Shown: positions 3,514 to 39,079, counted from the stretch's first letter. The stretch: DNA of 44,255 bases from a virus (IMGVR_UViG_2874920711_000009:1-44255), one strand, 5' to 3'. Numbers and translations: made by a program. The notes: generated from the sequence alone by a model not told the origin.

Positions 3514-3654
3514 TTACTGCTTACACTGTAAGAACGCCGCAAACTCCGCTCCCCAGAAGCTCATCCGTATTTCACACAGCGAACCGTGTAGCATCCAGAT
3601 GATGAGGATTACCGTCACGCAGAACGTGATGGCCGTAAGCGATTTTTGCGACAT
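3514..3654 (-). CDS. Hok/Gef-family type I toxin-like peptide (46 aa)
   Basis: Hand translation MSQKSLTAITFCVTVILIIWMLHGSLCEIRMSFWGAEFAAFLQCKQ: N-terminal TM helix then LCEIR..x6..EFAAF, matching the Hok/Gef motif LCE[IV]R..EVAAF; not in the ORF track (under 60 aa). Confidence 0.5.
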   Translation of the reverse strand: MSQKSLTAITFCVTVILIIWMLHGSLCEIRMSFWGAEFAAFLQCKQ

Positions 3655-3845
3655 AGCGCTTGCTCCTTTGTTGGAGAGGCGCTAACCTATCACTTGCTTA
3701 AGGTAGATATGTTAGGGCCTCGGTTAAACAAAAATGTTTTCCGGGGCCTTTCCACATCTGGCCTTCGGGTATTCCCTCCGACCATCAGCCGAAAGGCACC
3801 CGCGCGTAATCTATCGCTTTTTTGTTACTCCGGCAATTCTGCCTG

Positions 3846-4106
3846 TTAATTCTGAGGTAAAGGCAAACTCATCTGATTGTTTCCCCTGTGTGAAGCTGGC
3901 AGTTCATGCCACGGGATACCTTCTGAAGAGTGAACGCCGGAGGCATGTTTCGATGTGAATTTATGGAAAGCTTCCAGTGTTGAGAAGCATACGCCGCATT
4001 CCAAGTTGTTACACTGGTAATACTTTTGCCGCACGGTGTTTGAATCATTTTCCGGACGACTGGTGCGGATACGGGCAGATGCGCCACAAAGCGGACAACG
4101 GAACAT
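3846..4106 (-). CDS. ogr: Ogr/Delta-family zinc-finger late-gene activator
   Basis: MFRCPLCG...YYQCNNLECG zinc-finger pattern; GGGAGG RBS; adjacent to gpD as in P2. Confidence 0.8.
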   Translation of the reverse strand: MFRCPLCGASARIRTSRPENDSNTVRQKYYQCNNLECGVCFSTLEAFHKFTSKHASGVHSSEGIPWHELPASHRGNNQMSLPLPQN

Positions 4107-4148
4107 AGCGACCTCCCTTAACGTGGTGCTGCCGCTATTCTAAGTTGC

Positions 4149-5258
4149 TCACTCTGTTTCCGCTATCCATTCCGGGATTTTTGCCTCAAGCTCAAGCTGC
4201 GTGGTAAAGCCGCTGTTATCAATGGTGTGCTCGACTTTCGCAATAATCCAGTCCTGATTATCAATCTCGCTTTTAAATCCTGTTACCGTGCCATGCATTT
4301 CGGGGTAGAGTTCTGCGCGTCCACGTGCCAGTGTGATGGAGAACGCTGCGGCTCCGCGTTGTAGCTGCTGCCACTTTGCCGCCGCTGCGCGTCTTGCTGC
4401 CTGCTCGTTCTGATAAGTCTTGCGTAACACAAACACATTGCCTTCCGCGCCTTCCATATAATCACCTTCACGGCTGCTGCTTTTCTCCTTTTTCGGTTTG
4501 GGTGGTTTGCGGCGTTTCACGCTGACTTTTTTCTTTTTCCCATAGTTAAGATCAAGCCAGTAGGCGCGCACCCCCGTATACGCCTCGCGGTCAGCAATGC
4601 GGAACTGATGGCGATCGCCGCTGCTGCGTGTGATGGCGAACGATGGCAACGGCTGGCCCTGTGCGTTCACGCCACCACCTGGCATGATGAATAACAGATT
4701 GCCGCTTTTTACCGTGGTGATTGCGCCCAGCATTTCCGCCATGCGCGTAAGGAAGGACATGTCGCTTTCTTCGGTCTGGTCGGCGTGGTCGATTTCGATC
4801 TCCATCAGCATTTCGCTGATTTGCGGTTTCAGACCGTACCGATGAGCGATGGCAGATACCACGCGCTCAACGGTCACATCATGCCAGGATACTTCATGTT
4901 TAACGTTAAATTCATCCCGAAAATCTGCGCTTCTGGCTGAAACAGTCAGCCTGTCCGGCGGTCATTCGTGAGCGATTTCATCAACAATGTAAGTGCCTTT
5001 TTCTGTCAGCGGTTCTCCTTTCCAGCCAATGAGAACCGTCAGGCGCGCGCCCCGTGGCGGTAGCTGCAACTGACCATCCGCATCATCCAGCGTGATGGTG
5101 AGCTGGTCCGCCTCAAATCCCCGGTTGTCGGTCAGTGACAGGCTCATCAGGCGCTCTGCCACGCCTGACAGCGCTTTACCCTCCGCGAGAATATCAAAAT
5201 CCGGCATTTTCACGGGGTCTGTGCCCTGACTGAGCAATTGCATGGTGGTGTCGGTCAT
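4149..5258 (-). pseudogene. D: tail protein gpD (late control D), frame broken between about 4880 and 4960 as given
   Basis: N-terminal fragment from ATG 5258 (GGGAGG RBS) ends at 4962; C-terminal 242-aa fragment 4149..4877 in another frame. Confidence 0.75.
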
Positions 5259-5414
5259 CTGTTCCCTCCCTGTGCGGCATGGTCGCATGTGCGTGCGGAG
5301 GGGGTTACTGCTTTTTGTTGTCGCCGTGGCGGGAGAACGGCGCAGGGGTGAGATTACGCGCGTGGTGGGTGATGATTGTTGCCGAATCATTTAACGGATA
5401 CAAGGGCTGAAGCT

Positions 5415-6599
5415 ATGAGTGAAACTCGTTTTCATGGTGCCCGTGTTACGGCAAATACCGACCTGGTAACAGCGATTAACGATGTTGATTCCAGCATTAT
5501 CGGTATCGTGGCAACGGCGGATGATGCGGACGCGAAGCTGTTCCCGCTGAACAAGCCCACACTGCTGACCCGCGTCAATGACGTGCTGGGAAAATGCGGG
5601 ACAACGGGGACGCTTTATCGTGCGCTTAAGGCCATCGCAGACCAGGTGAGCACAAAGGTGATCGTCGTTCGCGTGGCTGAACACAAAGAAGAAGACGGAA
5701 AGACGCAGGATCAACTGGTTATCGGTGGTTCTGAGGATGACGGCAGCTATACGGGGATGTATGCGCTGCTTGTTGCAGAGCAGGATGAAAGCATCGGATA
5801 CCGTCCGCGTATTCTGGCCGCGCCGGAGCTGGACACGGAGGCGGTAACAAAATCCCTGTGCGTGATTGCGGGTAAACTGCGCGCGTTTGTGTATGCCTCA
5901 TGTCACGGCTGTAACACGATGGCTGAGGCGATTACCTACCGCCAGAAATTCAACGAACGTGAGGTGATGCTTCTGTGGCCGGATTTTATCGCTTACAACC
6001 CGAAAAGTGGTAAAAACGAAACGTTCCCCGCGCCTGCTTATGCGTGCGGCCTTCGTGCGTATATTGACCATGAGCAGGGCTGGCACAAATCGCTGTCCAA
6101 TGTTCCGGTTAAAAATGTCCTGGGCATGTCAAAACATGTTTTCTGGTCGTTACAGGCCGAGGACAGTGACGCCAACAGCCTCAACAACAAGGAAATCACC
6201 ACCATCATTCGCCGCAACGGGTTCCGCTTCTGGGGCAACCGCACACCGGAAACGAACGCCTACATCTTTGAGGTGTATACCCGAACCGCACAGGTGCTGG
6301 CTGATTCAATTGCGGAAGCGCAGTTTGAAACCATCGACAGTCCACTGACACCTGCGAACGTGAAGGATGTTATCAGCGCCATCAGGGCAAAACTGGATTC
6401 GCTGGTTACTGCCGGGAAACTGATTGGTGCGGAGTGCTGGTATGACGTGGTGGATAACGGCACCACGGATTTACGTCAGGGACGTGTGCGTATTCGCTAC
6501 AAATATACGCCCGTTCCGCCACTGGAAGACATGGAGCTTTACCAGACGTTTACTGATGAATTCTTTGGTCCCGCATTTGCGGTGCTGGGAGGTGCCTGA
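5415..6599 (+). CDS. FI: contractile tail sheath protein gpFI
   Basis: Intact ORF; strong similarity to recalled P2 FI (FPLNKP..., AIADQ..., LRAF.Y.S..GC.T..E...YRQ.F..RE.M..WPDF, GWHK.LSNV, IRR.GFRFWGNRT, Y.YTPVPPLE). Confidence 0.9.
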   Translation: MSETRFHGARVTANTDLVTAINDVDSSIIGIVATADDADAKLFPLNKPTLLTRVNDVLGKCGTTGTLYRALKAIADQVSTKVIVVRVAEHKEEDGKTQDQLVIGGSEDDGSYTGMYALLVAEQDESIGYRPRILAAPELDTEAVTKSLCVIAGKLRAFVYASCHGCNTMAEAITYRQKFNEREVMLLWPDFIAYNPKSGKNETFPAPAYACGLRAYIDHEQGWHKSLSNVPVKNVLGMSKHVFWSLQAEDSDANSLNNKEITTIIRRNGFRFWGNRTPETNAYIFEVYTRTAQVLADSIAEAQFETIDSPLTPANVKDVISAIRAKLDSLVTAGKLIGAECWYDVVDNGTTDLRQGRVRIRYKYTPVPPLEDMELYQTFTDEFFGPAFAVLGGA

Positions 6600-7108
6600 T
6601 GGCTGTACCAAAACATCTTCGCTTTTTTACGTTGTTTGTGGATGGTGAAAACGAAGTGGGCAAAGTGACATCCGTCACGCCGCCCAAACTGACGCGCAAA
6701 ACCGACAGCTATCGTGGTGGTGGCATGATGGGGCGGTAAGTATTGATCTCGGTCTGGACGACTCCGCGCTTGATGCGAGTTTTGTCATGGGGGAGCTGTT
6801 CGTGCGCTGTTCCTTAAATATGGCGGCACGATTGACGGCACGCTGCTGCGTTTTGCGGGTGAATACTACACCGATGCAGAAAGCGATCTGTATGAAATCG
6901 AGATGCGCGGGCGTGTGACGGAAATTGATATGGGGAAGCCAAACAGGGCGAAGCCACATCACACACTTACGCTGTCAAAAACACCTACTACAAGCTGAGC
7001 GTTAACGATCGCCCGCTGTGGGAAATCGACCTGTTGAACCACATCTACCGGAAGGACGGCAAGGACATTGTGCCTGACCGTATCCGTTCCGCGCTTGGGC
7101 TTGGCTGA
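6600..7108 (+). pseudogene. FII: tail tube protein gpFII, several frame breaks as given
   Basis: Starts MAVPKHLRFFTLFVDGENEVGKVTSVTPPKLTRK (FII-like) then loses frame; no long ORF in 6600..7110. Confidence 0.65.
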
Positions 7109-7163
7109 TAAGTAATATGCAGGCGGCGCAGTGCGTCGCCTCTGACTGAAAAGGAGACAACTA

Positions 7164-7538
7164 ATGAAAGACATCGATACTGAAACCCGGAATAACACCG
7201 TGGCGGATGATGTGACGGCAGGTGAGGATATGGCTGTCGAACGTGGCGTAAAACTGACCCGACCAATTGAGCGTGGTGGCGAAAAAATCACGTATGTGGA
7301 GATCACCGGGGCTATTGAGCAGGGTGGATCCCTGCGTGGTCTGTCGCTGTCTGATGTGCTGAATCTGAAAGCGGATACCATGTTTACGCTGTTGCCTCGC
7401 GTGACCTCGCCACGACTGGATGAAGTGATGATTAAAAAAATGTCGTCACGCGATTTTATTCAGTTGTGCGCTGTGGCTGTAAATTTTATGAGCGAGCCAG
7501 ACTCTGGCGCGAAGAGCGTGCAGGAGACGGCAGCGTAA
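7164..7538 (+). CDS. E: tail assembly chaperone gpE
   Basis: 124-aa ORF after FII with RBS AAAGGAGA; position and size class as P2 E. Confidence 0.75.
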   Translation: MKDIDTETRNNTVADDVTAGEDMAVERGVKLTRPIERGGEKITYVEITGAIEQGGSLRGLSLSDVLNLKADTMFTLLPRVTSPRLDEVMIKKMSSRDFIQLCAVAVNFMSEPDSGAKSVQETAA

Positions 7539-7702
7539 TCACCCTGGTGTGCTTTGAGCACATCGAAGATCTGGTGGCGGATATTGCCGCCATTTTTAAC
7601 TGGTCGCCCGCCGAAATCTTCATGATGACGCCCGGCGAAGTGGTTAGCTGGCGCGAGCGGGCGGCACTTCGCAGCGGGAATGCAGATAATGAAGACTCTT
7701 GA
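7164..7702 (+). CDS. E': gpE+E' fusion via programmed -1 ribosomal frameshift near the A7 run 7434..7440
   Basis: -1 frame opens exactly at the A7 run (stop TAA 7433..7435 just before) and continues to 7702, overlapping the T start at 7680. Confidence 0.5.
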
Positions 7703-10492
7703 TATCCGGGTCGCTTTCAGCGCCGTTGACAGGCTGACCCGGCCTGCCGAAAACGCCCGCCGCCTGATGGGGCAGTTTGGTGACTCCATCCAGCGAACTC
7801 AGGGGCGATCAAAAATCTCGAGCGTCAGGCGCGTTCATTTGAGCGCGCCCGTGACGCTGTCAGTAAAGCGGATGCGGGCATCGTGAAAGCACGACGCCAG
7901 CTTAACGCCCTTAATCAGTTACAACGCACGGGTACAGTGCTCAGCGAAAAACAACAAAAGCTGATGCAGCAGTTAAGCACCCGGCTTGAACGCCTGAATG
8001 AATCGCGCACACGGGAAATTCAGAAAATGCGGGAGCTTGGCGGAGAGCTGAAACGCCACGGCATTTCCCTGACAGGCAGCGATAACACCATCCAGCAGGC
8101 CATCAGACGCACCGAACAGTACAACAACCAGCTTGAACGCGAACGGCAGGCGCTTGCGCGTGTAACGCGGGCGCGTGAGCGGTATTCGCGCGCGCAGGAA
8201 ACAGCGGGAAAACTGAAAACAGGTGGTGCGCTGGCAATTGGGGCGGCAGCGGCGGGCGGCTATGCTGCCGGGCGTTTTTTGCAGCCCGCGATCGGGTTCG
8301 GCAAAGAGATGTCCCGCGTTCAGGCACTGACGCGAATAGACAAAAACAGCCCGCAGTTTAAAGCGCTGCGTGAGCAGGCGTTAAAACTTGGCTCTGAAAC
8401 ACAGTTTACTGCGAGTGATGCCGCCAGTGGGCAGAGCTTTCTGGCAATGGCTGGTTTTACTCCGCAGACCATTCAGGCCGCATTGCCCGGTGTTCTTAAT
8501 ATGGCGCTGGCAGGTGGCGTCGAACTCGGCGAGACAGATGATATAGGCTCCAATATCCTCACACAGTTCAACCTGACAGCCGATCAAATGGACCGGGTCG
8601 GCGATACGCTGACAGCGGCATTCACCCGGACCAATACTGATTTACGCGCGCTGGGCGAAACCATGAAGTATACCGGTCCGGTTGCCGCAAAACTTGGTAT
8701 CAGTCTTGAAGAAGCGGCAGCCATGGCCGGGATGCTTGCCAATAATGGTCTTCGTGGAAGCGATGCTGGTACGGCCATGCGCGCAAGTCTGTCCCGCCTT
8801 GCATCACCGCCAAAAGCTGTGGCTGATGCGCTGAAAGAGCTTGGGGTGTCAGTTGCTGACGCCAGAGGCAAAATGCGCCCGATGGAGGATGTGCTGCTTG
8901 ATCTCTATAAGGCGACACAAAAATACGGACAGGTGGACCAGGTCTCCTTCTTCAAGGACATCGCCGGAGAAGAGGCGTTCGTTGGTTTGCAGACGCTTGT
9001 TGCGGCGGCTGGTTCAGGAGAGCTGCAAAAACTGACCAGAGAATTGCAGGGGCAAGGGGAGAGGCCGATCGCGTTGCAAAAGTAATGGCCGATAATCTTG
9101 ATGGGGACCTGAAAAATCTCGACAGCGCATGGGAAGGTCTTCGTATTCGCATCAGTGATCTGGTTGACGGTCCGCTGCGTTCTGTCACGCAGTGGCTCAC
9201 GCGGGTGCTTGAAAAAATCACCTCGCTGGCGCAGGCCCATCCGGTACTGACGCGCCAGCTACTGATAGCAGGCGGTGCGTTGCTGGCAATGACTGCAACG
9301 ATTGGCTCATTGTCGCTGGTTATTGGGGCGCTTTACGGGAAGCTGGCCACCCTGCGTCTTGGTTTTGACATTCTTACCCGGTCAATGAATGTCGTCAGGG
9401 TTTTGCCTGCGCTGTGGGGAATGGTGACGGGTTCCGTTTCTTTACTGGGAGGCGCTATCGGGGCGCTGTTCAGTCCGGTTGGTCTTATCGTAGCTGCGCT
9501 TGCCGGAGCTGCCGTTCTTATCTGGAAATACTGGGATCCCATCAGGGCATTTTTTGCCGGGGTGTTCAGCGGGATTATGGAAAGGCTGACCCCGTTGCGC
9601 GAAACCTTTGAACGGTTTGGTCCTGTTTTTGAAGCAATCGGAAGCGGGATCAGCCAGGTGTTTAACTGGTTTAAATCGCTGCTGTCACCGATGGAGTCCA
9701 GCAAGGAAACGCTGGATAAATGTACCAGTGCTGGCGAGATATTCGGTAACGTTCTTGGCGGTGCGTTACAACTTGTTCTGACACTTGCAAAAATGTTGCT
9801 GGATACGCTGGCGTGGATACTTGAAAAGCTCGGTGTGCTTCCGGATGAAGCGGAAAGGGCGCGCAAGAAAATCGAAGACGCACAGCGTGCGGCCATTCTT
9901 CAGGACAAGGTTGCCTTGCTTCAGGGGGACCTGGCGAAAATCAATCCGCCGAAGCCTGTGGAAAATGGCAATGGCACCGGAGGTGATAAGCCCAAAGACA
10001 ACAAACCGCTCACAGATAGCAATACCGGTACGCTACGCAGACTCAGCAAAATTGCTGATAACACAGGTAAGCTGGTTGATGAGACGAAAAAACGCATTGG
10101 CCCCGGCGATATTGTCTTTAAGAACCTGCCCGCGCACTTGCTGTTCGTGGGGAGTGGCAGGAGCGGAAGATTGCGCAGGTCAGTAAGCCTGCCCCCGCAA
10201 TTAATATCACCCCGTGGTTCCGGCTCCGCTGCCTCCTGCGCTGGTCCCTGTTATTGCGGCCAGCTCCCGCCCGGTGGCGGAGGCCATACGATCGCCAGTG
10301 GCATCAGTTCCTGCAACTTCCCGTAACCGGGAGCCTGTTGCCTCCGGATTTGGCGGTGAAATTCATGTTCATCTGCATAACGTTGTTACGCAGAATCCCC
10401 GCGAACTGGCGAAACTGGTCGGTGAAATGGTCAGGGCAGAAATGGAACGGCGCGCCCGTGCCTGGCGTGGCAGTTTTTACGATAAAGATTGA
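7680..10492 (+). pseudogene. T: tail tape-measure protein gpT, at least three frame breaks as given
   Basis: Fragments 7680..7886, 7883..9085, 9085..10326, 10214..10492; coiled-coil and Gly/Ala-rich TM-like stretches typical of tape-measure proteins; break near 9050 sits in G4 runs. Confidence 0.8.
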
Positions 10493-13254: not shown

Positions 13255-15397
13255 GCAAGCCTCACAATATAGTTAAATGCGATGTTTTTTACGGTGTTTT
13301 CTGCGTTACCCGTAGCGTTAACGGTGATGGTATGCCCGTGTGAACCTATCGCAACGGAGTGTGTGTGTGCACCAATTCCTACCGTATGAGTGTGTGCGCC
13401 AATATTTACTGTGTGAGAGTGCCCCCTGCGTTACTTGTTTTTCCAGTGCCAAGCCCTGAGTTATAACCAGCCGAAACACCATTACCAGCACCAGTGTTAC
13501 CAACAGGAATATTGTGTGAATGATCCCCGGCGCTATTCGTGGTTTTAGTGCCATGGTTAAATGAACTGGACGTCTTGGTACCGTAATCAAACGACGATGT
13601 GGTTTTCGTCCCCAAATCCGTACTGGATGCACTGGCGCTGTGGGTGTGCGATTTAATGCCGTCCTGTTCCTGAGACAATACTGCACGACCACTGGCGGGC
13701 TTGCCCTTAATCGTCCAGCTACGCATATCAGGGATCACGCCTGACGGATAAGCGGCTGCAAGTTTCGGGTATGCAGATTTGTCAAAAGTCTGCCCCTGCA
13801 TCAGGGCATAACCAGACGGAACGGTATCTGATGGCCAAGGGATCGGTGCGCCAACCGGATAAAGTTCATGAGGCGAAATATACAGCGAATAAACAGAACC
13901 GTCCGTTAATCCTTCCGGCTTATTAGCAGAATATGCTGGTGAAGTATGAATCGTTACGCTGGCGTTACTGGTATAATCCCACTGAATATTAACACCTGTG
14001 GCGTAATTACCTATTTCAACATAAACATCATAGGTATCACCGGATGTATTCACCCATGCAAAATTAGTAAATCCAACCGATGTCCGTCGCCATAACGCAC
14101 CAGTAAGACCTTTTGGATTTCCATTTCCCGCACGAAGAACAAGTTCAGATATACCTGCCTGTTGAGGTGACTCTACGTTAAATCCCGCGCCACCAATCAA
14201 CGTAATTGAAACAACAGAACTCGCCTGCGGCATGGTTACCGTTGCTAATTTGAACCAACCAGCACCACCGCTGAATGACATAGTTGTTGAGTTAAGCGTA
14301 CCAATATCTTTCGGCGTCAGTGTAATATCCGCTGAAAGCGCCTTACCATTCACCTTACGGGCAGAAGGTACCCGACCATTCGCATTGTCATTAGCTGCTT
14401 TCACTGCTTTCGGTGTCGCGGCAAGCGTTTCAGATGTGCTGTTAGTCGCGCTGCTTAGCTGGACAATCCCTTTTTGTGCTGTCGTAGCGTCCTGAGCGGT
14501 ATATTTCCCGTTAGCAAGGTCATATGCTGTCTTTACCGCTTTCGGTGTTGCGGCCGGTGCTTCAGACGTGCTGTTGGTGGCGCTACTGAGCTGGACAAGG
14601 CCTTTCCGCGCTGTGGTGGCATCCTGCGCAGTATATTTCCCGTTAGCAAGGTCATATGCTGCCTTTACCGCCATTGGTGTTGCCGCCAGCGTTTCAGAAT
14701 CGCTGTTGGTGGCGCTACTGAGCTGGACAAGGCCTTTTCGCGCTGTGGTGGCATCCTGCGCAGTATATTTCCCGTTAGCAAGATCATACGCGGCCTTTAC
14801 TGCTTTCGGCGTTGCAGCCTGCGTTTCAGACACGCTGTTAGTGTCGCTACTGAGTTGAACAAAGCCTTTTGCGGTCAGCGAGGCGTCCGGGTGACGTCGT
14901 GACTGTTCATGTTCTTTCAGTTTGTCATTCACGTAATCCACTGTGGCCATAACCATGGTGTTATCCACGGTAAGCGCCACGGTGGCAGTGCTGGATACGG
15001 TCAGAATGGTGCGAAATGTTTGTGCACGTCCGGATCCTTCGGCAACGGTTGGTTTGTAACTTTCGGCAGTATTGCCCACCGCGATCAAATCGCCGTGCTC
15101 ATCAAATACACCAATTTCCCGGATCCAGAATCCGCCCGTTTCAGGAGGAATAACCAGCTCCGCAATAATGCGGTTCTGATGTGTTGCGTCCAGGATGACG
15201 CGATTAACAGTATGTCGCCACACCTCATGCACCAGACGGGTCTGCTTACTGTCTGGTGTGGGCAACGTGCCGCCACCGTCGCCCACGGCCATATGAGTCA
15301 GGCGGACAGGATTACCATCTGGCGCGGCAGCCTGAGCTAATTTTTTGGCACCAGTATCAGTGATAATGGTTTTAAATTTTCGTGTTGTGGTACTCAT
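13251..15397 (-). pseudogene. H: tail fibre protein gpH, frame break at a C5/G5 run near 13422..13426
   Basis: 663-aa ORF 13406..15397 plus out-of-frame C-terminus [57 protein letters not shown]; one extra G would restore the frame. Confidence 0.85.
14410..14890. repeat. four tandem copies of a ~114-bp coding repeat inside H
   Basis: Repeated 38-aa unit KG[FLI][36 protein letters not shown] visible in protein and DNA. Confidence 0.7.
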
Positions 15398-28736: not shown

Positions 28737-29048
28737 TTATTCGGGAAATAACGCCCGGATATTTCCGGCCATCTGACTGGTTATCTGTGCGGTTGATACT
28801 GGCTGTGATGCGGGGCGTTCTGTCCTGGTTTGTGTCACTGATAACGCCTCATCATCAGCCCATGCAGCCAGTCGGTAAGCCTCTGCCGGATTCATTTTCA
28901 GAAGTGCCAGCCCGGCCAGAAAAGCCACGCGTTGGCCGCTTTTGCGGGCTTCTGGTGTAAGGCTGTCCAGCCAGGCGCATGCTTCGCCTTCGTTCTTGAC
29001 GGCGGCGGGCTTCAGATAGAAACTTATTCGTCTGGTTGGTGTCGTCAT
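28737..29048 (-). CDS. ParR-like partition adaptor
   Basis: Directly downstream of parM homologue; [14 protein letters not shown]...[13 protein letters not shown] resembles ParR; AGGAG RBS before ATG 29048. Confidence 0.5.
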
Positions 29049-29052
29049 TGAT

Positions 29053-30035
29053 TTACTCCTTGTCCATTGCGTACAGCCCATTAACCAGAGCAAACTGTGG
29101 CACCCCGTCCGCGATGAAAGTCGCATTAACTCCGCAGGCTTCGCGGATAGCGGGTGCCACAATCTCCGCTCCTCCACCTACAACCATCACCCGCCCGTAA
29201 CCCGAAAAACCCGCCAGCGCGCGGATCACGCGTTGTTTCAGTGTTTCTTCCTTTTCACGAATAACCGCCATCAGGCTGGCGTAATGTGCGTCATTGTGGA
29301 TGTGCTGGCGCAGCCAGGCTTCATCATGGCGATGTTCGATAATGGTATTGGCGATGTGGTGACTGGTACGCATACCGTTAGTGGCCATCACCGACAGTAC
29401 GGCATCGGCCATCAGGGAAACGCCTACGTGTGGATCGCAAAATACCTGGCTGATACCTGCCAACTGCCCCTGAACCTTTGCCACATCCAGCGTGGTTCCG
29501 CCCAAATCCACAATCAGCAGGGATTCAAACGGACTCATGTCAGCCAGTGTTTTAAAGCCAGTTGGAATGGATTCAGGCATAACCCGTACGTTACGGATAG
29601 TGAATGCTTCGCCGTTCTGGTACTCCACCGGGCGCATAACGTTCGCTTTTTTGCGGTTGATGTTGGCCATGTCCGGCTGTGCGTTTGTGTCGAAATACTC
29701 GCTCAGTGGCAGGGTGACAACCACATCCACCTCCTGTGGCGTGATGCCTGATTTGACCAGCGCGTGATGCCTGATTTGACCAGCGCGTGATGAATGGCAA
29801 TGACATTCACATCGCTGTACTGGTATTGCGTGTCGGTCGTCTGGACAAAGCGATCGCTGACCGGATCAAAACCATAGCGCACGCCATCAAGCATGTAGTT
29901 CGCGGGCTGCGTGCCACCGAACGGCGCAGACCATTCCGACTTGAAGCTGTTCGGGCTGATGGCGTTGCGGCGTTCGCCGTTCTCAGTCCATGCCAGCTTG
30001 ATGTTGGTGGAGCCGTCGTCGATACAAATTTTCAT
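29053..30035 (-). pseudogene. ParM/StbA-family actin-like ATPase, disrupted by a 23-bp tandem duplication
   Basis: MKICIDDGSTNIKLAW...SPNSFK.EW...YSDVNVIAIHHAL and C-terminal LLIVDLGGTTLD, VVGGGAE match ParM; removing one copy of 29741..29763 restores a 319-codon ORF. Confidence 0.75.
29741..29786. repeat. perfect 23-bp tandem duplication (GTGATGCCTGATTTGACCAGCGC x2)
   Basis: Read directly; flanked by GCGTGATG microhomology. Confidence 0.85.
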
Positions 30036-30178
30036 GTCGCTTTTCCTTATGTTGATTAATTAATCGTTTACGGGATTCTGAAATCCCGTTTTTTCCGTAA
30101 GCGCCCCATCAGCGACGTCTTGTGAAAATTGTCCTGTCTGGCAACAATCGCGCCCATCTATATTGATGGACACGAACG

Positions 30179-30781
30179 ATGAATTCCCAGACAACAAAAG
30201 ATATTCCCTGCTTCCGTTCTTATTTGCCTGATGCCCTGCGTTTAAGATTTGAAGATAAACTGACCATCCGGGCCATCGCTCAGCGTCTGGGTCTCAGTCA
30301 TTCCACAATACATACGCTTTTTCAGCGATTTCTTGCATCCGGTATCGCATGGCCATTGCCCGATTCAGTTTCATTCGCTCAACTTGACGCCATCCTTTAT
30401 GCCAACAGAAAGAAGGAATTAACAGAGCCTCAAATCAGAGAAGGCTCATGGCGAAAAGAACGGCGAACCAGCTATAGCCGTGAATTTAAGGTCCGTCTGG
30501 CTAAGCAGGCGTTACAGCCTGGGGCTGTTGTTGCCCGGATCGCCAGAGAACACGATATCAATGATAACCTGCTGTTTAAATGGAAAAGCCAGTACGAGGA
30601 CGGCTTACTGAGCGATGATGACATACAGGAATGCATGCCTGTCCCGGTGGCACTGACTGATACGCCGGAGCCGACCAGACCAGTTACAAATCCCTTCTGG
30701 CGTAACAAGCATGATGAGCGCCCTGAGGGGCTCCCGGAAACGTCCCACGGTGCGAGCTGCATCTTAAATCAGGTGTGGTAA
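30179..30781 (+). CDS. IS66-family TnpA-like protein (HTH)
   Basis: ORF track; 3' end differs from copy B by a G4/G5 homopolymer length. Confidence 0.7.
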   Translation: MNSQTTKDIPCFRSYLPDALRLRFEDKLTIRAIAQRLGLSHSTIHTLFQRFLASGIAWPLPDSVSFAQLDAILYANRKKELTEPQIREGSWRKERRTSYSREFKVRLAKQALQPGAVVARIAREHDINDNLLFKWKSQYEDGLLSDDDIQECMPVPVALTDTPEPTRPVTNPFWRNKHDERPEGLPETSHGASCILNQVW

Positions 30782-30847
30782 AACTGTTTGACCCTCTCAC
30801 TCCGGAACTGTTACGGGCGCTAATCCGCGAAATGAAAGGGGTATCCG

Positions 30848-31195
30848 ATGATAACGCTGCCGACCGGTACCAGAATCTGGATCATCGCTGGCATCACAGA
30901 TATGCGTTGTGGCTTCAATGGCCTGGCTTCGAAGGTGCAGAACACGCTGAAAGATGACCCGTTCTCCGGGCATATCTTCGTCTTCCGGGGCCGCAGTGGC
31001 AAAATGGTGAAAATACTGTGGGCCGATCGTGACGGGTTATGCCTGTTCGCCAAACGCCTGGAACGGGGCCGCTTCGTCTGGCCGGTGACCCGGGAAGGGA
31101 AAGTGCACCTGACGCCAGCTCAGTTATCCATGCTACTGGAGGGGATCGCGTGGCAACATCCCAAACGGACAGAACGGCCTGGCATCCGGATATAA
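30848..31195 (+). CDS. IS66-family TnpB
   Basis: 115-aa ORF typical of IS66 orf2. Confidence 0.8.
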   Translation: MITLPTGTRIWIIAGITDMRCGFNGLASKVQNTLKDDPFSGHIFVFRGRSGKMVKILWADRDGLCLFAKRLERGRFVWPVTREGKVHLTPAQLSMLLEGIAWQHPKRTERPGIRI

Positions 31196-31214
31196 CCCGT
31201 GATAAAACAAGGGA

Positions 31215-32770
31215 ATGAACAATGAACTCCCCGATGATATTGAGCTGCTTAAAGCCATGTTGCGTAAGCAACAGAGTCGGCTTCGACAGTATGCCTGTCA
31301 GGTCGCGGGCTATGAGCAGGAAATTGAACGGCTGAAAGCGCAACTCGACAGGTTGCGTCGTATGTTGTTCGGCCAGAGTTCAGAGAAAAAGCGTCATAAG
31401 CTTGAAAATCAGATCCGACAGGCAGAAAAACGACTGTCGGAACTGGAAAACCGGCTGAACACAGCCAGAAATCTTCTGGAAGATGCATCGTCAGTCACAG
31501 ATTCACCTGACACCAGTCCCCCGTCAGAAAACCCGATCGCCAGTAAGCCTGAATCCCCGGGAGACACATCGCCTTCTGCCTGCTGAAACCAGTTGCCCGG
31601 CCTGTGGAGGTGTTCTGAAAGAAATGGGGAAACAATCTCAGAGCAACTGGATATCATTAATACCGCCTTTAAAGTTATCGAAACCATACGTCCCAAACTG
31701 GCCTGTAGCCGGTGTGATGTCATCGTTCAGGCACCACTTCCCCCTAAACCGATCGAACGCGGTTATGCCAGTGCAGGGTTACTTGCACGGATCCTGGTCA
31801 GCAAATATATGGAACATATCCCTTTATATCGCCAGTCAGAAATATACGCGCGACAGGGCGTGGAGCTGAGCCGTAATACCATGGTGCGCTGGGTATCAGA
31901 AATGGCAGACAAACTCCGTCCTCTGTATATAGCGCTGAATGACTATGTTCTGGAGGCAGGAAAGGTGCACGCAGATGACACTCCGGTGAAAGTACTGGCC
32001 CGGGGAACGGAAAGACGAAAACGGGTCGTCTGTGGGTATACGTCAGGGATGATCGTAATGCGGGTTCATCCCTGCCGGCAGCCGTCTGGTTCGCGTATTC
32101 GGCAGATCGCAAAGGAGAACATCCGCAGCTCCACCTGGCAAAGTATCAGGGCGTACTGCAGGCTGATGCCTATGCAGGTTATAACGTACTGTACGAAACG
32201 GGCCGGGTGAAGGAAGCCGGGTGCCTGGCCCACGCCCGCCGAAAAATCCATGACGAGGATGTGCGCCGTCCGACAGAAATGACTCAGGAAGCGCTCAGAC
32301 GGATAGCAGAGTTATACGACATAGAAGCGGAGATACGTGGCAGTCCGGCAGAGGAACGGCTTGCAGTCAGAAAAGCCAGAAGCGTCCAGTTGATGCAGTC
32401 GTTGTACGACTGGATACAGTTGCAGAGGAAAACGCTGTCGAAATATGCGGAGATGGCGAAGGCGTTCGACTATATCCTGAATCACTGGAATGCGCTGAAC
32501 GAGTTCTGTCGTGACGGCTGGGTGGAAATAGACAACAACATCGGTGAAAACGCGTTACGATCGGTGGCGGTTGGAAGAAAAAATTATCTCTTTTTCGGCT
32601 CAGACAAGGGAGGAGAAAGTGCGGCGATCATCTACAGTCTGCTGGTCACCTGCAAACAGAACGAAGTGGAGCCGGAGGACTGGTTGCGCGAAGTGATCGA
32701 GAAGCTCAATGACTGGCCGTCGAACCAAGTGCATGAACTGCTGCCCTGGAACTTCTCGTCTGTAAAATAA
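31215..32770 (+). pseudogene. IS66-family transposase TnpC, frame breaks at homopolymer runs
   Basis: Fragments 31215..31586, 31593..32210, 32207..32770; copy B has the corresponding 504-aa ORF intact. Confidence 0.8.
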
Positions 32771-32798
32771 TCCTTACGCTACGTACTTCTCGGGGCGC

Positions 32799-35090
32799 TT
32801 ACTTATCAGGCAAAGGCCGCTGCTGTTTGCGGCTCTGTGTCCAGCTCTGCATTTCATCACTGCTGTTTTTTGCCTGTTTGTCACGAAGCGAACGCATCAG
32901 CGCCCGGCGTTCGTGCCGTTTCAGTGAGCGCATCCATTCGTTCACTTCAACGCCGTCAGGGAGCTGCGGCCACGGTGCTGGCCGTTCTTTCGGCTGTTCT
33001 GTCCCGTTGTTGTCCGTTTCCTGTACACGGGGACAGTTATTGCCACGAGTCCAAGGGGCGGCAGGGCCGCCCTGAAGGTCAAAACCATTTTCGCGGGTGC
33101 TGTCCTCCGCTTCCGGTTTACGTCTTACCAGCTTCCAGTTATCCGGATGCGTGCACACACGGGAGGATTCCCCGATGAATGGCGACCAGATCCCGTAAAT
33201 CTGTACACTCTGTTCGCCGTAATCGTTCAGCTCATCTGCGAGGTCGTAGGCTGTGCGAATCAGGTAGTCCTTGCGCGGAACAAGTACGCCACCCTGTTTT
33301 TCAATGTAGGTGGCAAAACACCCGGCATCAGCGGCAGCAAGAACCGCATCCATTGCGTCATCCTTCAGCCGTTGCGGGCCTTCTGGGTTGCGTGCTATCT
33401 GGCTGGCAAGGCGGCGGAGTTCACGCCACACCTGACGGGAGGGGATGCCAAAGAACTGGAACTGGCGGACCCGGTGAAGGCGCGCCCAGCCGATGGCGCG
33501 CTCCACGCTCTCGGCCATTGATTTACCTGTTTCGTGGTCAACGCGTGGCTTGCCCGTTTTCGGGTCGATGCCATCCACGGCGCGGCTGTCCAGGTTCTTT
33601 CCGATGTAGGTGGCGATGTAGCTGGTTGGCGTGCCTTTTGAGCCGTCGACGTACTCCGCCTTAAAGCGTGGGGTAATATCATCACCCAGCTCGTGACGAT
33701 CTTCCTGAATGGCAATATCGCGGGTGTGGGACACAATGGTGTCGATTTCTTCCGGATGAGCAAAGACCATCATATGCCAGTGCACGGTGCCGTCATGGTG
33801 AGGCTCCACCGTGCGGATGCCATACCAGCGCAGGCCGTCGCGGTTCAGTTTCTTGCGGACCGCTGCAAAAAACGTGTTAACCAGGTAATCGCTGGAGTCG
33901 CGCATGGTGGCCCCGTTCCATTTGGGATTCGGATGACTGTTCTCTGTTGTGGCGTGGTATTTTGACGGGCAGGTGACAGTCAGAAACACCGCTTTGTCGC
34001 CACGGGCTTCGGCCAGAAGTTCCAGCCCCTTCATGGTGGCCATCATTTCTGCCTTACGGTGAACCGGGTTACTTACTCCCGCGTAATACACTGTCTCGAG
34101 ATCAATCGTGAACCCGTCTTCGTTTTCCAGCATGAAACTTTTCAGGAAATCGCGTGTTTTCTCGCGCTGTGCGCGAAACTCGCTTAACGCGTCCTGGCTC
34201 AGATAGGGTGATGTTTTTCTGGAAACCAGACAGGCGGCGCGGAGTTGTTCTTCTCTCCACTCGCAACGTAACAGCCACAGTTTGCGTTTCCACCATTCCG
34301 CACAGGTCAGGCGAAGGATTGCGCCCGGCAGCAGCTCCGTGTCCGGTTCGTTCCTCCGGTCTTTGTCTGTTGTCAGTGCGTCATAATGTGGAGGCATGGC
34401 GTGCAGGTGTAACGCCATGCGGGCCAGCATCTGATACGCCTTCAGCGTTACATCCATGGTCAGTTCGCCATCGGTCGCGCCAAAGCCATCGCAGAGTTTT
34501 TCGAAGGTGCTGCTGAACATCGCCGCCGTCATGGTGGCCAGCGTCTGTATCTGGTGTTTGTTGAGCTGCGGCAGGTAAAGCAAATCGTCCAGGCGTTCGC
34601 GTCCGGCAAGGGAGCGATAACCCGGTGTCAGCCAGTGTCCGTCAGTGCGATCCAGACGTTCGAATATTTTGCGCAGGGTTCCGCGTGCATAGCGTTCCGC
34701 CTGCCAGCTCTTTTTGCCTTTCCGGCGATCGGCTTCCTGTTTTTTGCGCAGGAAGGAGAGGTGGCGAATAAGCGGATCGCGCAGATAGGACGGCAGCAGG
34801 TGCAGCGAGGCCATGGCTTCATCCACCGCGCCGCGTGCCTGTTTTCTGGCGTCTCCTGCCAGTGTGATGGTTTTGTCCTGTTTTTCCTGTGCGTCCAGGC
34901 TTTTATTAATCAGGTTGCCCAGCGGCGTGGCGGAGAACGCCGCATTAGCCATTTCCTGGCGGCGCTCGTTCTCTACCCGGTAGGCATCCAGCCAGGAGGA
35001 AAGCACGGATTCAGGAGCGGGGATCCCCGTTCCTTCACGCCCCACTGCGTGGCGCGGTTGTTGCCAGTCCCTGATGTACTCTGCCGTCAT
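32799..35090 (-). CDS. A: rolling-circle replication initiation protein gpA
   Basis: 763-aa ORF of gpA size and character; stop codon TAA is formed by the IS66 terminus (G-TAA-GCG). Confidence 0.85.
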   Translation of the reverse strand: MTAEYIRDWQQPRHAVGREGTGIPAPESVLSSWLDAYRVENERRQEMANAAFSATPLGNLINKSLDAQEKQDKTITLAGDARKQARGAVDEAMASLHLLPSYLRDPLIRHLSFLRKKQEADRRKGKKSWQAERYARGTLRKIFERLDRTDGHWLTPGYRSLAGRERLDDLLYLPQLNKHQIQTLATMTAAMFSSTFEKLCDGFGATDGELTMDVTLKAYQMLARMALHLHAMPPHYDALTTDKDRRNEPDTELLPGAILRLTCAEWWKRKLWLLRCEWREEQLRAACLVSRKTSPYLSQDALSEFRAQREKTRDFLKSFMLENEDGFTIDLETVYYAGVSNPVHRKAEMMATMKGLELLAEARGDKAVFLTVTCPSKYHATTENSHPNPKWNGATMRDSSDYLVNTFFAAVRKKLNRDGLRWYGIRTVEPHHDGTVHWHMMVFAHPEEIDTIVSHTRDIAIQEDRHELGDDITPRFKAEYVDGSKGTPTSYIATYIGKNLDSRAVDGIDPKTGKPRVDHETGKSMAESVERAIGWARLHRVRQFQFFGIPSRQVWRELRRLASQIARNPEGPQRLKDDAMDAVLAAADAGCFATYIEKQGGVLVPRKDYLIRTAYDLADELNDYGEQSVQIYGIWSPFIGESSRVCTHPDNWKLVRRKPEAEDSTRENGFDLQGGPAAPWTRGNNCPRVQETDNNGTEQPKERPAPWPQLPDGVEVNEWMRSLKRHERRALMRSLRDKQAKNSSDEMQSWTQSRKQQRPLPDK

Positions 35091-35096
35091 AGTGAT

Positions 35097-35462
35097 TTAC
35101 TTCGTCATGCCATTCAGGGTGTCGCGGCAGACTGTAGCCAGCCGCTGAATTTCCAGCACGGTGTCTTCTGTGTCGGCATGGCGATGTGTGATGCGGATGC
35201 TGTCGGCAATCACATCGACGATTGCAGAGGATGGGCGCTGGTAAATGCCAATAACGGACGGGGTGCCACCTTCAATGCGGTAAAGCCTGTAATTTCCCTC
35301 GTGGCTGTCAATCATGTAGCGACCATCAATAACAATCTTTCCGTCAGCGAGCTGCGGTACAGGCAGGGATTTCAGGTACATGTCATAACGATCACGCACG
35401 CGAGCGGCAAGATCACGCTCTGTGTTGAGCAGGTATTCAAGAAAGTCGTTGGCGAGAATCAT
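35097..35462 (-). CDS. hypothetical early-region protein (121 aa)
   Basis: ORF track; immediately upstream of A. Confidence 0.5.
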   Translation of the reverse strand: MILANDFLEYLLNTERDLAARVRDRYDMYLKSLPVPQLADGKIVIDGRYMIDSHEGNYRLYRIEGGTPSVIGIYQRPSSAIVDVIADSIRITHRHADTEDTVLEIQRLATVCRDTLNGMTK

Positions 35463-35534
35463 TGCGGCAATCCTCTTGTTACAGATGTGCGAAGGCCTCC
35501 CGCCGCAAGGTGCAGGAAAGGCCCGGAACAGGAA

Positions 35535-35765
35535 TTAATGGAGTTTGTTTTGCTGCTGGATGAGCTGTTGAAGCTCGTGCAGATCATCCGCCAGATAGCT
35601 GAAAACAGAGGCGGAATAAATGTTTGATAGTGCGTGGCTGCGCTCATGCAACATATTGATGTGCATGATTTGCGCGACGCGTGATGCGCGGGAAAGTCTG
35701 CGGTTGATTTCAGTCTGGATGTGACGACGCTCCGCGATAGCGCGGTGTGGTTTGCGGTTTGCCAT
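35535..35765 (-). CDS. hypothetical early-region protein (76 aa)
   Basis: ORF track. Confidence 0.5.
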   Translation of the reverse strand: MANRKPHRAIAERRHIQTEINRRLSRASRVAQIMHINMLHERSHALSNIYSASVFSYLADDLHELQQLIQQQNKLH

Positions 35766-36087
35766 GGTGTGGCCCCTTGTGTAGTAAGTTGTGAAAACTC
35801 ACCATCCAGAGCTGCGAAACTGTGGGTGGCGAGACGTACGAGGTTCGCAGTACCGGCTACACAAGAACCCGGCCCGACCGAAGTCGGCCCCGTACGCCCC
35901 GCCATAATTCTGACGCGAAAAAAACGTAGCAATACAGTACGCACAAAAAAACCGCTGGCGCGGTTGTGCGCTTGTGTAGTCAGCAGGCTGCGAAACCCGG
36001 CACCCGTTTTGTGAGGTGCAGCGGAAATGTAACCTGACTGATTGCGGCATGGCAAGCGGTTTTTTTGTGTGTGCATGTTCTGGTTTC

Positions 36088-36387
36088 TTAGTGGTTCAGA
36101 AAAAAATCAAAAACCTTGTCAATGCGTTGCAGCAGCTCTTGCTGTATTGCTTCCGGCGTTTCCGGTTCGCCTGGCGCCTCCAACGTCGCGCAGAAATCCT
36201 CGATTTCATGACGGAGCGTCAGGCGAATGGCGAGAGGTGTGGTTCTGGCGTGCTCCAGCTCATCCAGCAGCGCCAGCACAGCAGACGGCGAGAGCATTGC
36301 GCGAAACGCCAGTAATTTTTGAGGCGTTGCCATTCGTTGCAGGTCAGTCGCCAGTTCGCGTAATTCCTGGTGGTTGATGGCGCTCAT
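36088..36387 (-). CDS. hypothetical early-region protein (99 aa)
   Basis: ORF track; overlaps next gene by 4 bp. Confidence 0.5.
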   Translation of the reverse strand: MSAINHQELRELATDLQRMATPQKLLAFRAMLSPSAVLALLDELEHARTTPLAIRLTLRHEIEDFCATLEAPGEPETPEAIQQELLQRIDKVFDFFLNH

Positions 36388-36629
36388 GCTCTGGCTTCCT
36401 TCAGTAGCTGGTTAAACGTGTTGGTAAGTGGATTGCCGCACCCGAACGGCATCGGGTTTATCTGGTAAGAAAAGCGACCGCCTGTTTTGCGCTCTTTTCT
36501 TATGACTGAACCACTGCGCCAGAGTCGGCGTAACTCCGCATTAATGGCTGTGGTTGGGGTATTCAGTGCTGCGGCGATTTCTCCACCGCTACACCCCGGA
36601 TTGGCGGCGATATAGTCCAGAATGGTCAT
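36384..36629 (-). CDS. putative winged-helix DNA-binding protein (81 aa)
   Basis: MTILDYIAANPGCSGGEIAAALNTPTTAINAELRRLWRSGSV has HTH character. Confidence 0.5.
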   Translation of the reverse strand: MTILDYIAANPGCSGGEIAAALNTPTTAINAELRRLWRSGSVIRKERKTGGRFSYQINPMPFGCGNPLTNTFNQLLKEARA

Positions 36630-36829
36630 CTGCGTGACTCCTGTACCTGTCGGATAAGGTTCACCCGCACCACATTCGTGGCGCAGAAGTAAGTGCCGTC
36701 AGTGAGATAGATGTGATGTGCATCCTTTTCTGAACGGTGTTTGTCGATTGTGGTAATCAGGCGTTCGTCGACTTCGTATTCACGCCCTCTGGAGGTAAAA
36801 CGAACGACAGGAAAATGCTTAATTGCCAT
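36626..36829 (-). CDS. hypothetical protein (67 aa)
   Basis: ORF track; overlapping start/stop with neighbours. Confidence 0.45.
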   Translation of the reverse strand: MAIKHFPVVRFTSRGREYEVDERLITTIDKHRSEKDAHHIYLTDGTYFCATNVVRVNLIRQVQESRR

Positions 36830-36915
36830 TACGCCTCCTTGGCGTGTGCGAATACCTCCGCGAATGCGGATTGTTTTTACATTTTCTTATTTAATCTGTG
36901 GTTTTATTTGCTCTG

Positions 36916-37029
36916 TTATTCGCCAGTGAAAAAGCGTTCAATCTTTTTTATTGAATGAATAATTCGCATAATCCCAATAGCGCAGGCCACCGAAATAATC
37001 AGAACAAGCCATGAGATAAATATACTCAT
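36916..37029 (-). CDS. small hydrophobic peptide (35 aa), single TM
   Basis: Hand translation MSIFISWLVLIISVACAIGIMRIIHSIKKIERFFTGE; ATG overlaps stop of upstream gene (ATGA). Confidence 0.3.
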   Translation of the reverse strand: MSIFISWLVLIISVACAIGIMRIIHSIKKIERFFTGE

Positions 37030-37271
37030 GCGATATTCCCCAGCTTATACGGTTCAATATGTTCCCCGCATTCTGCGGCACAGATCAGCTCGGAAAGTTC
37101 GTTAAGTGCATCCAGATCATCAGCGTAAAAAGCCACGTCATACAGACTTCGGATTGCTCTGGTCAATGAGTCACGGGCCGCACGTTCAGCATGAGCGCCT
37201 GATGCACTTAAGCGAAAATAAAAACGCTCAAGTGCTTTGTTAATGAGAGTTTTATATTCTTTGCCCATCAC
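37026..37271 (-). CDS. hypothetical protein (81 aa)
   Basis: ORF track. Confidence 0.45.
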   Translation of the reverse strand: MMGKEYKTLINKALERFYFRLSASGAHAERAARDSLTRAIRSLYDVAFYADDLDALNELSELICAAECGEHIEPYKLGNIA

Positions 37272-37279
37272 AACGCCCT

Positions 37280-37567
37280 TTAATCTGCTTTCTGTATTTC
37301 AGCTTCTGAATCCATACAAATAATTTCGATATAGGGTTCATCGCCATTAACCTGGCGTGCCTTTTCAGCTTCGCTAATGATTTTTCGTACGGTCTGGTAC
37401 GGAAGTTCCACAAGCAGTCGCGTGCCGTTCAGATAAACGTAAGTGGCTTCGTCGGCTCCGTTTTTACCCGCCGGAGTCACTCCGTCAATAGCGGATGCAC
37501 GTAATAACAGTTCACCGCGAAAATCAATAAAACGGATAAATACACCTTGTGCATGGTCTTTGGTCAT
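37280..37567 (-). CDS. hypothetical protein; probable start ATG 37567
   Basis: ORF track frame 37280..37681 overlaps the upstream gene; internal Met at 37567 follows its stop by 10 nt. Confidence 0.4.
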   Translation of the reverse strand: MTKDHAQGVFIRFIDFRGELLLRASAIDGVTPAGKNGADEATYVYLNGTRLLVELPYQTVRKIISEAEKARQVNGDEPYIEIICMDSEAEIQKAD

Positions 37568-37577
37568 AAAGCACCTG

Positions 37578-37919
37578 TTATAAATCAGCCTGTTTAATAA
37601 AACTTTGCCCGCGAAGCAGACGATCAACCGTGCGAAGTGCTTCGTATAATGTGAAATCCTGCCCGAACTGATTGTCGCCACAGCTTAGAGCAAAAATGCG
37701 GTTTCCGGTAAACGGATTGCGTGGGCATTTGTGGATCACGATTCCAGCTTTCTCAATCAGCCAGGCATGCTCGCCGATTTGTTTTACTGGGTAGCCATCC
37801 GGCGTTGCGCGTGTATCACTCAGGCTGTAGCGGATGTTGCTGCGTGATGCACTGGTAGCAAAACGGTTAGCGTGGCGTTCTGCACCATTGCGAAAGCGTG
37901 AATTACGTTGCTGTTTCAT
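37578..37919 (-). CDS. hypothetical protein (113 aa)
   Basis: ORF track. Confidence 0.45.
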   Translation of the reverse strand: MKQQRNSRFRNGAERHANRFATSASRSNIRYSLSDTRATPDGYPVKQIGEHAWLIEKAGIVIHKCPRNPFTGNRIFALSCGDNQFGQDFTLYEALRTVDRLLRGQSFIKQADL

Positions 37920-38173
37920 GTTAAAGACTCTGTACAGATTTAATTATTCCGGCATAGAGGCCGAACTCAAAATATTTGCGATTAAATCGCATCGCATTGT
38001 TTTCACGTTTTGCGGACTGCTGGTTCATTTTCGTTTGCCTCCGCACATGAGAATTGCGCCGCTTAAGAGGTAACCGAAGTTAATTGATAGTATTACAATT
38101 AACATAAGGTCCAATTTGTCCATGCCACACATAATTACCCTCATTGCAGTAGTTGTGGGTTGTGGATTTGCCC

Positions 38174-39079
38174 CTATATTTCCAGACATCTGTTATCACT
38201 TAACCCATTACAAGCCCGCTGCCGCAGATATTCCCGTGGCGAGCGATAACCCAGCGCACTATGCGGATGCCATTCGTTATAATGCTCGAACGCCTCTGCA
38301 AGGTTCTTTGCTGCCGTTAACCCGTCTGGTTTGGGCATGATACTGATGTAGTCACGCTTTATCGTTTTCACGAAGCTCTCTGCTATTCCGTTACTCTCCG
38401 GACTCCGCACCGCCGTGTTCTTCGGTTCAAGTCCCAACATCCGGGCGAACTGGCGTGTTTCATTAGCCCGGTAGCATGAACCATTATCCGTCAGCCACTC
38501 CACTGGAGACGACGGAAGATCGTTGCCGAAGCGGCGTTCCACCGCTCCCAGCATGACGTCCTGTACTGTTTCACTGTTGAAGCCGCCGGTAGTCACCGCC
38601 CAGTGCAGTGCCTCACGATCACAGCAGTCCAGCGCGAACGTGACACGCAGTCTCTCTCCGTTATCACAGCAGAACTCGAACCCGTCAGAGCACCATCGCT
38701 GATTGCTTTCTTTCACGGCCACTCTGCCTGTATGTGCCCGTTTCGATGGCGGTACAGCAGGTTTTCGCTCAAGCAACAGCGCATTCTGGCGCATGATCCG
38801 GTAAACACGTTTGGCATTAATCGCAGGCATACCATCAAGTTCTGCCTGTCTGCGAAGCAGCGCCCATACCCGACGATAACCATACGTGGGCAGCTCTCCG
38901 ATAACATGGTGTATACGGAGAAGCACATCCGTATCATCAGTGTGACGACTGCGGCGGCCATCCATCCAGTCATCGGTTCGTCTGAGAATGACGTGCAACT
39001 GCGCACGCGACACCCGGAGACAACGGCTGACTAAGCTTACTCTCCATCCCCGGGCAATAAGGGCGCGTGCGCTATCCAC
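38174..39079 (-). CDS. insD: IS2 transposase OrfB
   Basis: 301-aa IS3-family transposase with DDE region. Confidence 0.9.

Follow-up and report, generated by a model that had tools for sequence, protein, structure and literature searches.

In the P88-type (Xuanwuvirus, P2-like) prophage represented by the 44,255-nucleotide stretch of viral DNA analyzed here (IMGVR_UViG_2874920711_000009:1-44255, hereafter the window), 550 bp of phage DNA appear to have been lost at one of two IS66-family insertion sequence (IS) copies, and with them the natural end of the replication-initiator gene A; we put the probability of this reading at about 0.9. The copy concerned, copy A, is an ISSfl3-like element at positions 30097..32802 on the plus strand, with its genes running from tnpA to tnpC left to right, and is 2706 bp long as assembled. 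Gene A (35090..32799, minus strand) now encodes a protein, gpA, of 763 amino acids ending in RPLPDK. The missing 550 bp, the two junctions, the truncation, and their spread across strains are established. The window is an exact reverse-complement match to chromosome CP026824.1, where the prophage lies beside pdxB, and the prophage belongs to Shigella dysenteriae in at least one assembly with the same junctions.

We set the boundaries of the IS by comparing copy A with copy B and by their common terminal 11-mer GTAAGCGCCCC, which occurs as a perfect repeat at 30097, 32802, 40507, and 43213, that is, at both ends of both copies. Copy B (40507..43213, minus strand) is inverted relative to copy A and lies between a repressor-like gene (40119..40457) and int (43236 onward). 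The original prediction, whose range (30089..32810) takes in copy A with 8 bp at either end, held that copy B is flanked by a perfect 8-bp target duplication and copy A by none, and the flanks bear this out. The inner (40499..40506) and outer (43214..43221) flanks of copy B both read GGAGAAAT, an 8/8 match. The tnpA-end flank of copy A, TTTTTTCC (30089..30096), has no repeat at the other end, where the last phage bases of the truncated gene A read TTATCAGG (32803..32810; CCTGATAA in the sense of gpA), and the two flanks agree at 3 of 8 positions. Perfect 8-bp duplications also surround two of three complete ISSfl3 copies read in Escherichia coli FDAARGOS_943 and two copies of a related isoform, and such a duplication is the norm for the ISSfl3-like element. 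Because the element normally makes 8-bp duplications, copy A can be taken to have gone through a secondary event, and if the missing duplication reflects a secondary deletion, it is no argument against membership in the IS66 family. Loss of the duplication is itself not rare for ISSfl3: on a plasmid of FDAARGOS_943 (NZ_CP065616.1, 3003..5756), a complete ISSfl3 stands amid other IS fragments without one (GTCGTACC versus CCTGAAGT).

Alignment with IS-free relatives, which the original prediction had proposed as a check, located the missing DNA. The window is collinear with P88 (Xuanwuvirus, Peduoviridae) at 92-97% DNA identity over the main well-aligned blocks, and the phage sequences flanking copy A are collinear with P88 positions 8244 and 8795, so that exactly 550 bp (P88 8245..8794) are absent. 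About 550 bp also separate the matching flanks in P88_4B11, vB_EcoM-569R5, PhiR44_2, and PhiSM. In P88, gene A spans 5957..8779 (940 amino acids) and parM starts at 8856; the lost segment comprises the last 535 bp of A, from the third base of codon 763 through a further 177 codons to the stop codon, together with 15 of the 76 bp of the A-parM spacer. We compared 13 intact relatives, namely P88, P88_4B11, PhiR44_2, and ten prophages found through the exact ParR protein of the window. Their gpA proteins are 938-946 amino acids long (one is split in two), versus 763 in the window, which likewise agrees with the expectation that the natural end of A had been removed by an IS-associated deletion: the 550 bp are found in all close relatives, and none carries the same junction without the IS. 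The further suggestion that genes had been lost between A and the adjoining "cargo" operon, which we identify below as parMR, did not hold, as parM directly follows A in 13/13 intact relatives, in twelve of them after 76-77 bp and in the remaining one after 101 bp.

At the broken end, gpA finishes with CCT GAT AAG TAA, in which codon 763 is composed of AA from the phage (32804-32803) and G from the IS (32802). The TAA stop (32801..32799, minus strand) consists wholly of bases 2-4 of the IS terminal repeat (G-TAA-GCG), as had been proposed. Residues 1-762 share 97.5% identity with P88 gpA, and the IS junction supplies residue 763 (K) and the stop. The protein retains an intact Phage_GPA domain (PF05840; 435.8 bits, amino acids 179-503, profile positions 1-321 of 321), and the P88 gpA motif YIATYIGKN aligns with YIAKYISKN of P2. 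Also kept, more than 200 bp inside the junction, is a homologue of the P2 ori nick region (33015..33086, minus strand; P2 GCCGCGCCTCGGAGTCCTGTCAATAACTGT versus window GCCGCCCCTTGGACTCGTGGCAATAACTGT), which we placed by means of the nick site annotated at 29892 in the P2 record and which, by homology, would be a putative origin. The 177 C-terminal residues and the stop of the 940-residue protein are absent, and gpA is therefore not full length. The 178-residue tail of P88 gpA matches positions 699-852 of 852 of PHROG 91, a general gpA profile (E 4.6e-19); the lost part is an open frame in 12/12 relatives, with a ratio of nonsynonymous to synonymous polymorphism (pN/pS) of 0.21, and none of the 14 P88-type phage records lacks it. 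Judged by these comparisons, the lost tail is genuine protein-coding sequence, and its truncation would be expected to abolish gpA function.

At 763 amino acids, the protein nearly equals P2 gpA (761 amino acids), which might suggest a natural short allele at whose end the IS merely inserted without a duplication. However, P2 gpA aligns to residues 77-800 of P88 gpA and thus ends past the break point, the nearest relatives (96-99.7% DNA identity) all run 177 codons further, and the stop codon is IS sequence. We consider a short allele almost certainly the wrong explanation; a P2-length allele is ruled out by the alignments, and the likeness in length is coincidental. The 763-amino-acid "replication endonuclease" in these Shigella genomes would accordingly be read as a truncated pseudogene product whose stop is IS sequence, rather than as a gpA of P2 length, a point of little importance beyond annotation.

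Both junctions of copy A are base-identical in six long contigs of independent assemblies, among them AFFZ01, which is S. dysenteriae 155-74, serotype 2 (PMC4374849), and an index of public assemblies has the exact 763-amino-acid gpA protein in 61 blocks. The common junctions could serve as a lineage marker. This distribution bears on whether the structure might be an assembly artefact, in which directly oriented IS copies around the 550 bp were collapsed into one or homopolymer errors simulated a truncation. The record is indeed error-prone. Copies A and B are identical save for seven single-base G/C homopolymer indels (30726, 30837, 31625, and 31998 in copy A; 42322, 42081, and 41793 in copy B), and dozens of such differences separate the window from P88. 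At all seven sites the base is missing in this record only (the window and CP026824) and present in every other assembly. The true IS length in this lineage is 2710 bp. Relative to P88, the window has about 60 gaps, most of which are losses of one base in short G/C runs; these disrupt the portal, terminase, scaffold, and further open reading frames (ORFs) that are intact in the sister assemblies CP027027 and UYIS01. Most frameshifts in the window are sequencing errors and not pseudogenes, and frameshifts in this record need careful reading because they are mostly of this homopolymer type. The gpA region, however, is gapless against P88 over 3267 bp, and many short-read contigs stop at the gpA-IS junction. 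The agreement of all six assemblies at the junctions shows that the absent duplication did not arise through faulty assembly of this record, and an artefact is scarcely credible.

The same assemblies showed a rearrangement that also involves the two IS copies. A 7.7-kb early region (32803..40506), which holds the repressor gene, cox, an IS2, the early genes, and gpA, is bounded by the two inverted IS66 copies. In CP026824, CP027027, and UYIS01, which are complete or long, the order is int, copy B, early region, truncated gpA, copy A, and parM, as in the window. In the drafts AMJQ01, AFFZ01, and AAMJ02, the order is parM, IS, early region, truncated gpA, IS, int, and pdxB, so that one side reads gpA-IS-int-pdxB and the other parM-IS-repressor gene. 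From the gene orders, the draft arrangement corresponds to an inversion of the 7.7-kb segment through recombination between the inverted IS copies. Since the duplication at copy B is perfect and the order matches that of P88, the window would represent the older arrangement. The orientation of the early region could be used to mark the S. dysenteriae strains that carry the prophage.

Given that such an inversion does occur among strains, the unlike flanks of copy A might have arisen without any deletion, if recombination between copies A and B had inverted the segment and swapped the flanks. This would leave both copies with unlike flanks, yet in the window the duplication at copy B is perfect and the gene order matches P88. 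Moreover, in the inverted strains the gpA-side flank is paired with GGAGAAAT, which is still not its own repeat, and neither orientation contains the 550 bp. We assign a negligible probability to inversion without deletion; as the cause of the unlike flanks, inversion between the two copies is ruled out by the copy B duplication and by the absence of the 550 bp either way.

The element itself is an IS66-family member by gene content and by its ends. It carries tnpA, tnpB, and tnpC in this order, with an IS66-type DDE transposase; TnpB matches NCBIfam NF033819 (IS66_TnpB) at 125.6 bits (cut-off 50) and TnpC matches NF033517 (transpos_IS66) at 452.6 bits (cut-off 180), and the Pfam matches are HTH_Tnp_1, TnpB_IS66, zf-IS66, DDE_Tnp_IS66, and DDE_Tnp_IS66_C. 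Inverted repeats of IS66 elements start with GTAA, and those found here begin GTAAGCG. RefSeq labels matching or identical E. coli copies as "IS66-like element ISSfl3 family." Relative to the 2754-bp RefSeq-annotated ISSfl3 of FDAARGOS_943, the element differs by 8-9 substitutions, an 8-bp repeat polymorphism, and a 44-bp deletion. This deletion, which lies between TCCCCGGG repeats, shifts the frame of tnpC in both copies and in all six assemblies; compared with the reference ISSfl3 copy (3004..5757), it maps to 31500..31560 in copy A and 41750..41800 in copy B, and the intact TnpC has 533 amino acids. Because of the frameshift, both copies are expected to be non-autonomous, with no transposase of their own. 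A 504-amino-acid TnpC ORF in copy B (40539..42053) is an artefact, in which the 44-bp deletion and a 1-bp miscall add up to 45 bp and restore the frame. We also observed that an 8-bp unit, CATACAGG, near IS position 526 (window ~30620 in copy A) occurs as a single unit in CP026824 and CP027027, whereas the other four assemblies have two. Within each genome the two IS copies agree both in the number of these units and at a T/C site near IS position 2360, which suggests concerted evolution (gene conversion) between them.

Taken together, these data suggest the following course. An ISSfl3-like element of the IS66 family would have entered the early operon at its 3′ end and made the usual 8-bp duplication; later, 550 bp beside one IS end would have been lost along with one copy of the duplication. 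By the route that we slightly favor, RecA-type recombination with another copy, lying in direct orientation at a distance of 550 bp, would have left a single IS whose left flank derives from one insertion and whose right flank derives from the other. The resulting gpA would keep the nuclease domain and the ori-like site, lack the 177 C-terminal residues, and end in K followed by the IS stop. Deletion by recombination of directly oriented IS66 copies, with one copy left between unlike flanks, has been described for the Agrobacterium plasmid pAt15955 (PMC6778807). For recombination in the prophage it can further be said that the two copies have evidently recombined with each other, as seen in the inversion polymorphism; that both copies share strain-specific polymorphisms; and that the 44-bp deletion in both tnpC genes leaves them without a transposase of their own.

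The other route to the same deletion is a transposase-driven adjacent deletion, in which a single copy attacks a target 550 bp away in an intramolecular, replicative-type reaction. It would yield exactly the observed product with no third insertion, the presence of two copies in one prophage points to local hopping, and a member of the IS66 family has been reported to keep the donor copy on transposition in a "copy-and-paste" manner (PMC12898284). In addition, the T-rich tnpA-side flank TTTTTTCC resembles the target duplications ATTTCTCC, TTTTCAAA, and TTTTCTTC, which hints, weakly, at the spacer as the primary target, with the deletion extending from the tnpC end into A. This hint is based on five sites, however; the five other duplications (ATTGATCC, TTTTCAAA, ATTTCTCC, TTTTCTTC, and GATTTCTG) are all T-rich but too few and too loose to name the primary site. 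Adjacent deletion would also need transposase in trans, as both tnpC genes are frameshifted by the 44-bp deletion, the chemistry of IS66 transposition is not established, and our literature search, which on the IS66 mechanism yielded papers on Agrobacterium and Deinococcus only, gave no report of adjacent deletions by IS66 elements. We regard this route as only somewhat less than an even bet; the split between the two is roughly even, with a slight lean to recombination. Since both would give the same product, the sequence cannot separate them, and of the "IS-mediated adjacent deletion" in the original prediction the deletion at the IS stands, while its transposase-driven mechanism becomes one of two indistinguishable ones.

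Several points weigh against the course of events proposed here. Recombination requires a third insertion in the same orientation within 550 bp, which is not parsimonious. No intermediate, either an IS at one site with its duplication or two copies 550 bp apart, was found in the databases searched, which comprised 5,426 complete E. coli genomes, the GTDB species representatives, and the JGI metagenomes. The junction queries gave 0 places at ≥80% coverage in the E. coli genomes, and the exact gpA|IS junction gave 0 in the GTDB representatives. A hypothetical junction IS|CCTGATAACC was found 0 times in the GTDB representatives and JGI metagenomes, as was a hypothetical junction CAGGCAAAAA|IS in the JGI metagenomes. 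Chimerism inside the IS, a possible trace of recombination, gave no signal, the copies being identical within each genome. Finally, all 13 intact relatives read TTTTTGCC at the place of the tnpA-side flank of copy A, which is one base off (GGAAAAAA versus GGCAAAAA), and neither route accounts for the change. Because no intermediate was found, the order of events and the route of the loss are inferred. With regard to the altered base, we note that position 30094, the third base beyond the tnpA end, reads GGAAAAAACGGG in the window and UYIS01 and GGCAAAAACGGG in 13/13 intact relatives, and that the change gives a flank beginning GGA, as in the copy B flank GGAGAAAT. This could be a chance single-nucleotide polymorphism or a short conversion tract out of the IS.

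On the other side of copy A, 61 of the 76 bp of the A-parM spacer remain (30036..30096, minus strand) upstream of the parM ATG. The gene parM (29053..30035, minus strand) encodes an actin-like partition ATPase (Pfam StbA_N/ParM_N) and is frameshifted by a perfect 23-bp tandem duplication of GTGATGCCTGATTTGACCAGCGC (29741..29763 and 29764..29786), which divides it into ORFs of 110 and 225 amino acids. The duplication is common to CP027027.1 and is not found in the four other assemblies, where ParM has 319 amino acids; it is a real strain-specific mutation. The adjoining parR (28737..29048, minus strand) encodes a partition adaptor of 103 amino acids that matches PF10784 (Plasmid_stab_B) and PHROG 2515 ("partition protein," E 1e-58) and occurs as the exact protein in 12,744 index blocks. 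An actin-like ParM with a ParR adaptor places the operon with the type II (ParMRC) systems.

The deletion also reaches a pair of direct repeats in this region. In P88, a 42-nt unit is present at 8713..8754, inside the end of A, and at 8786..8827, in the spacer, 73 bp apart; both units have a palindromic core, ACGGGAyTyAsrAATCCyG, with 8-bp arms, conserved in 13/13 relatives. The deletion takes the first copy whole and the first 9 nt of the second, whose palindromic core survives in the window at 30070..30089 (minus strand, ACGGGATTTCAGAATCCCGT). These two units are the only repeats upstream of parM in the intact relatives, in which R1-like 11-bp iterons were absent. The antisense strand of both copies resembles intrinsic terminators, and in the variants seen in relatives pairing is kept only as G-U on the sense strand. 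We propose the repeats as the candidate centromere and operator of the P88-type ParMR, to which ParR would bind, an assignment that we consider unlikely to be right on present comparisons. If it were correct, the replication gene would share its end with a partition site, in a P2-like phage that perhaps exists in both integrated and plasmid form, and the IS-linked deletion would have halved the centromere besides truncating gpA, as the original prediction had guessed. As to the promoter region of the operon, whose loss the original prediction had also raised as a possibility, a consensus scan for sigma-70 promoters found none in P88 8200..9000, which covers the lost stretch and the intact spacer, or in the window at 29900..30300. 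A comparison of the lost DNA with Rfam, read up to an E value of 1, gave no known RNA. As no consensus promoter was found, parMR may simply be read from the early operon, in which case the 2.7-kb IS itself would be the main block to parMR expression.

Other lesions affect the early region and its border with int. An IS2 (38163..39492) with a perfect 5-bp target duplication, GGTTG, lies in the early operon between cox/orf68 and a DUF4761 gene and is probably polar on all downstream genes, gene A included. Copy B separates the repressor-like gene (PHROG 147, E 1.5e-29) from int, the two genes having the same orientation. Because P2-type phages express int together with C, copy B probably uncouples int from its promoter. 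With these two insertions, the prophage is very probably locked in the chromosome, and from comparison with P88 and PhiSM it is very probably cryptic. Elsewhere in the window, three overlapping copies of a 230-nt unit, 132 bp apart and with 79-82% identity, lie at 14376..14869 inside a 663-amino-acid ORF (13406..15397); they align with the P88 tail-fibre gene and look like an internal fibre repeat.

Adjacent deletions by intramolecular replicative transposition are familiar from IS1, IS26, IS903, and Tn3, for which the chemistry is established, in contrast to IS66. The structure at copy A resembles the products of those elements in having a single element, no duplication, and DNA gone from exactly one terminus outward. 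The closest parallel within the family is the 270-kb deletion of Agrobacterium tumefaciens pAt15955, which likewise left a single IS66 copy with mismatched flanks at the junction (PMC6778807) and was explained by homologous recombination of two copies in direct orientation (PMC6778807). There, however, the two-copy parent was in hand and removal of one copy abolished the deletion (PMC6778807), whereas no parent is known for the prophage. The prophage case also differs in size, with a deletion of just 550 bp, and in its element, which is ISSfl3-like and has a defective tnpC.

In overall layout, the prophage resembles P88 and Citrobacter phage PhiSM, with the repressor gene, cox, early genes, gpA, parM, parR, variable cargo, portal, and terminase. 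Both are inducible, functional phages with a gpA of 940 amino acids (PMC6456863). Unlike them, the prophage in the window has a truncated gpA, two IS66 copies, an IS2, a frameshifted parM, and a different immunity and integrase region. In Shigella, IS expansion and IS-linked rearrangements disable prophages and genes and become fixed in lineages. The prophage described here is one more instance, with no difference of substance: an ordinary IS-associated deletion in a decaying Shigella prophage, and an event of a kind that is already known.

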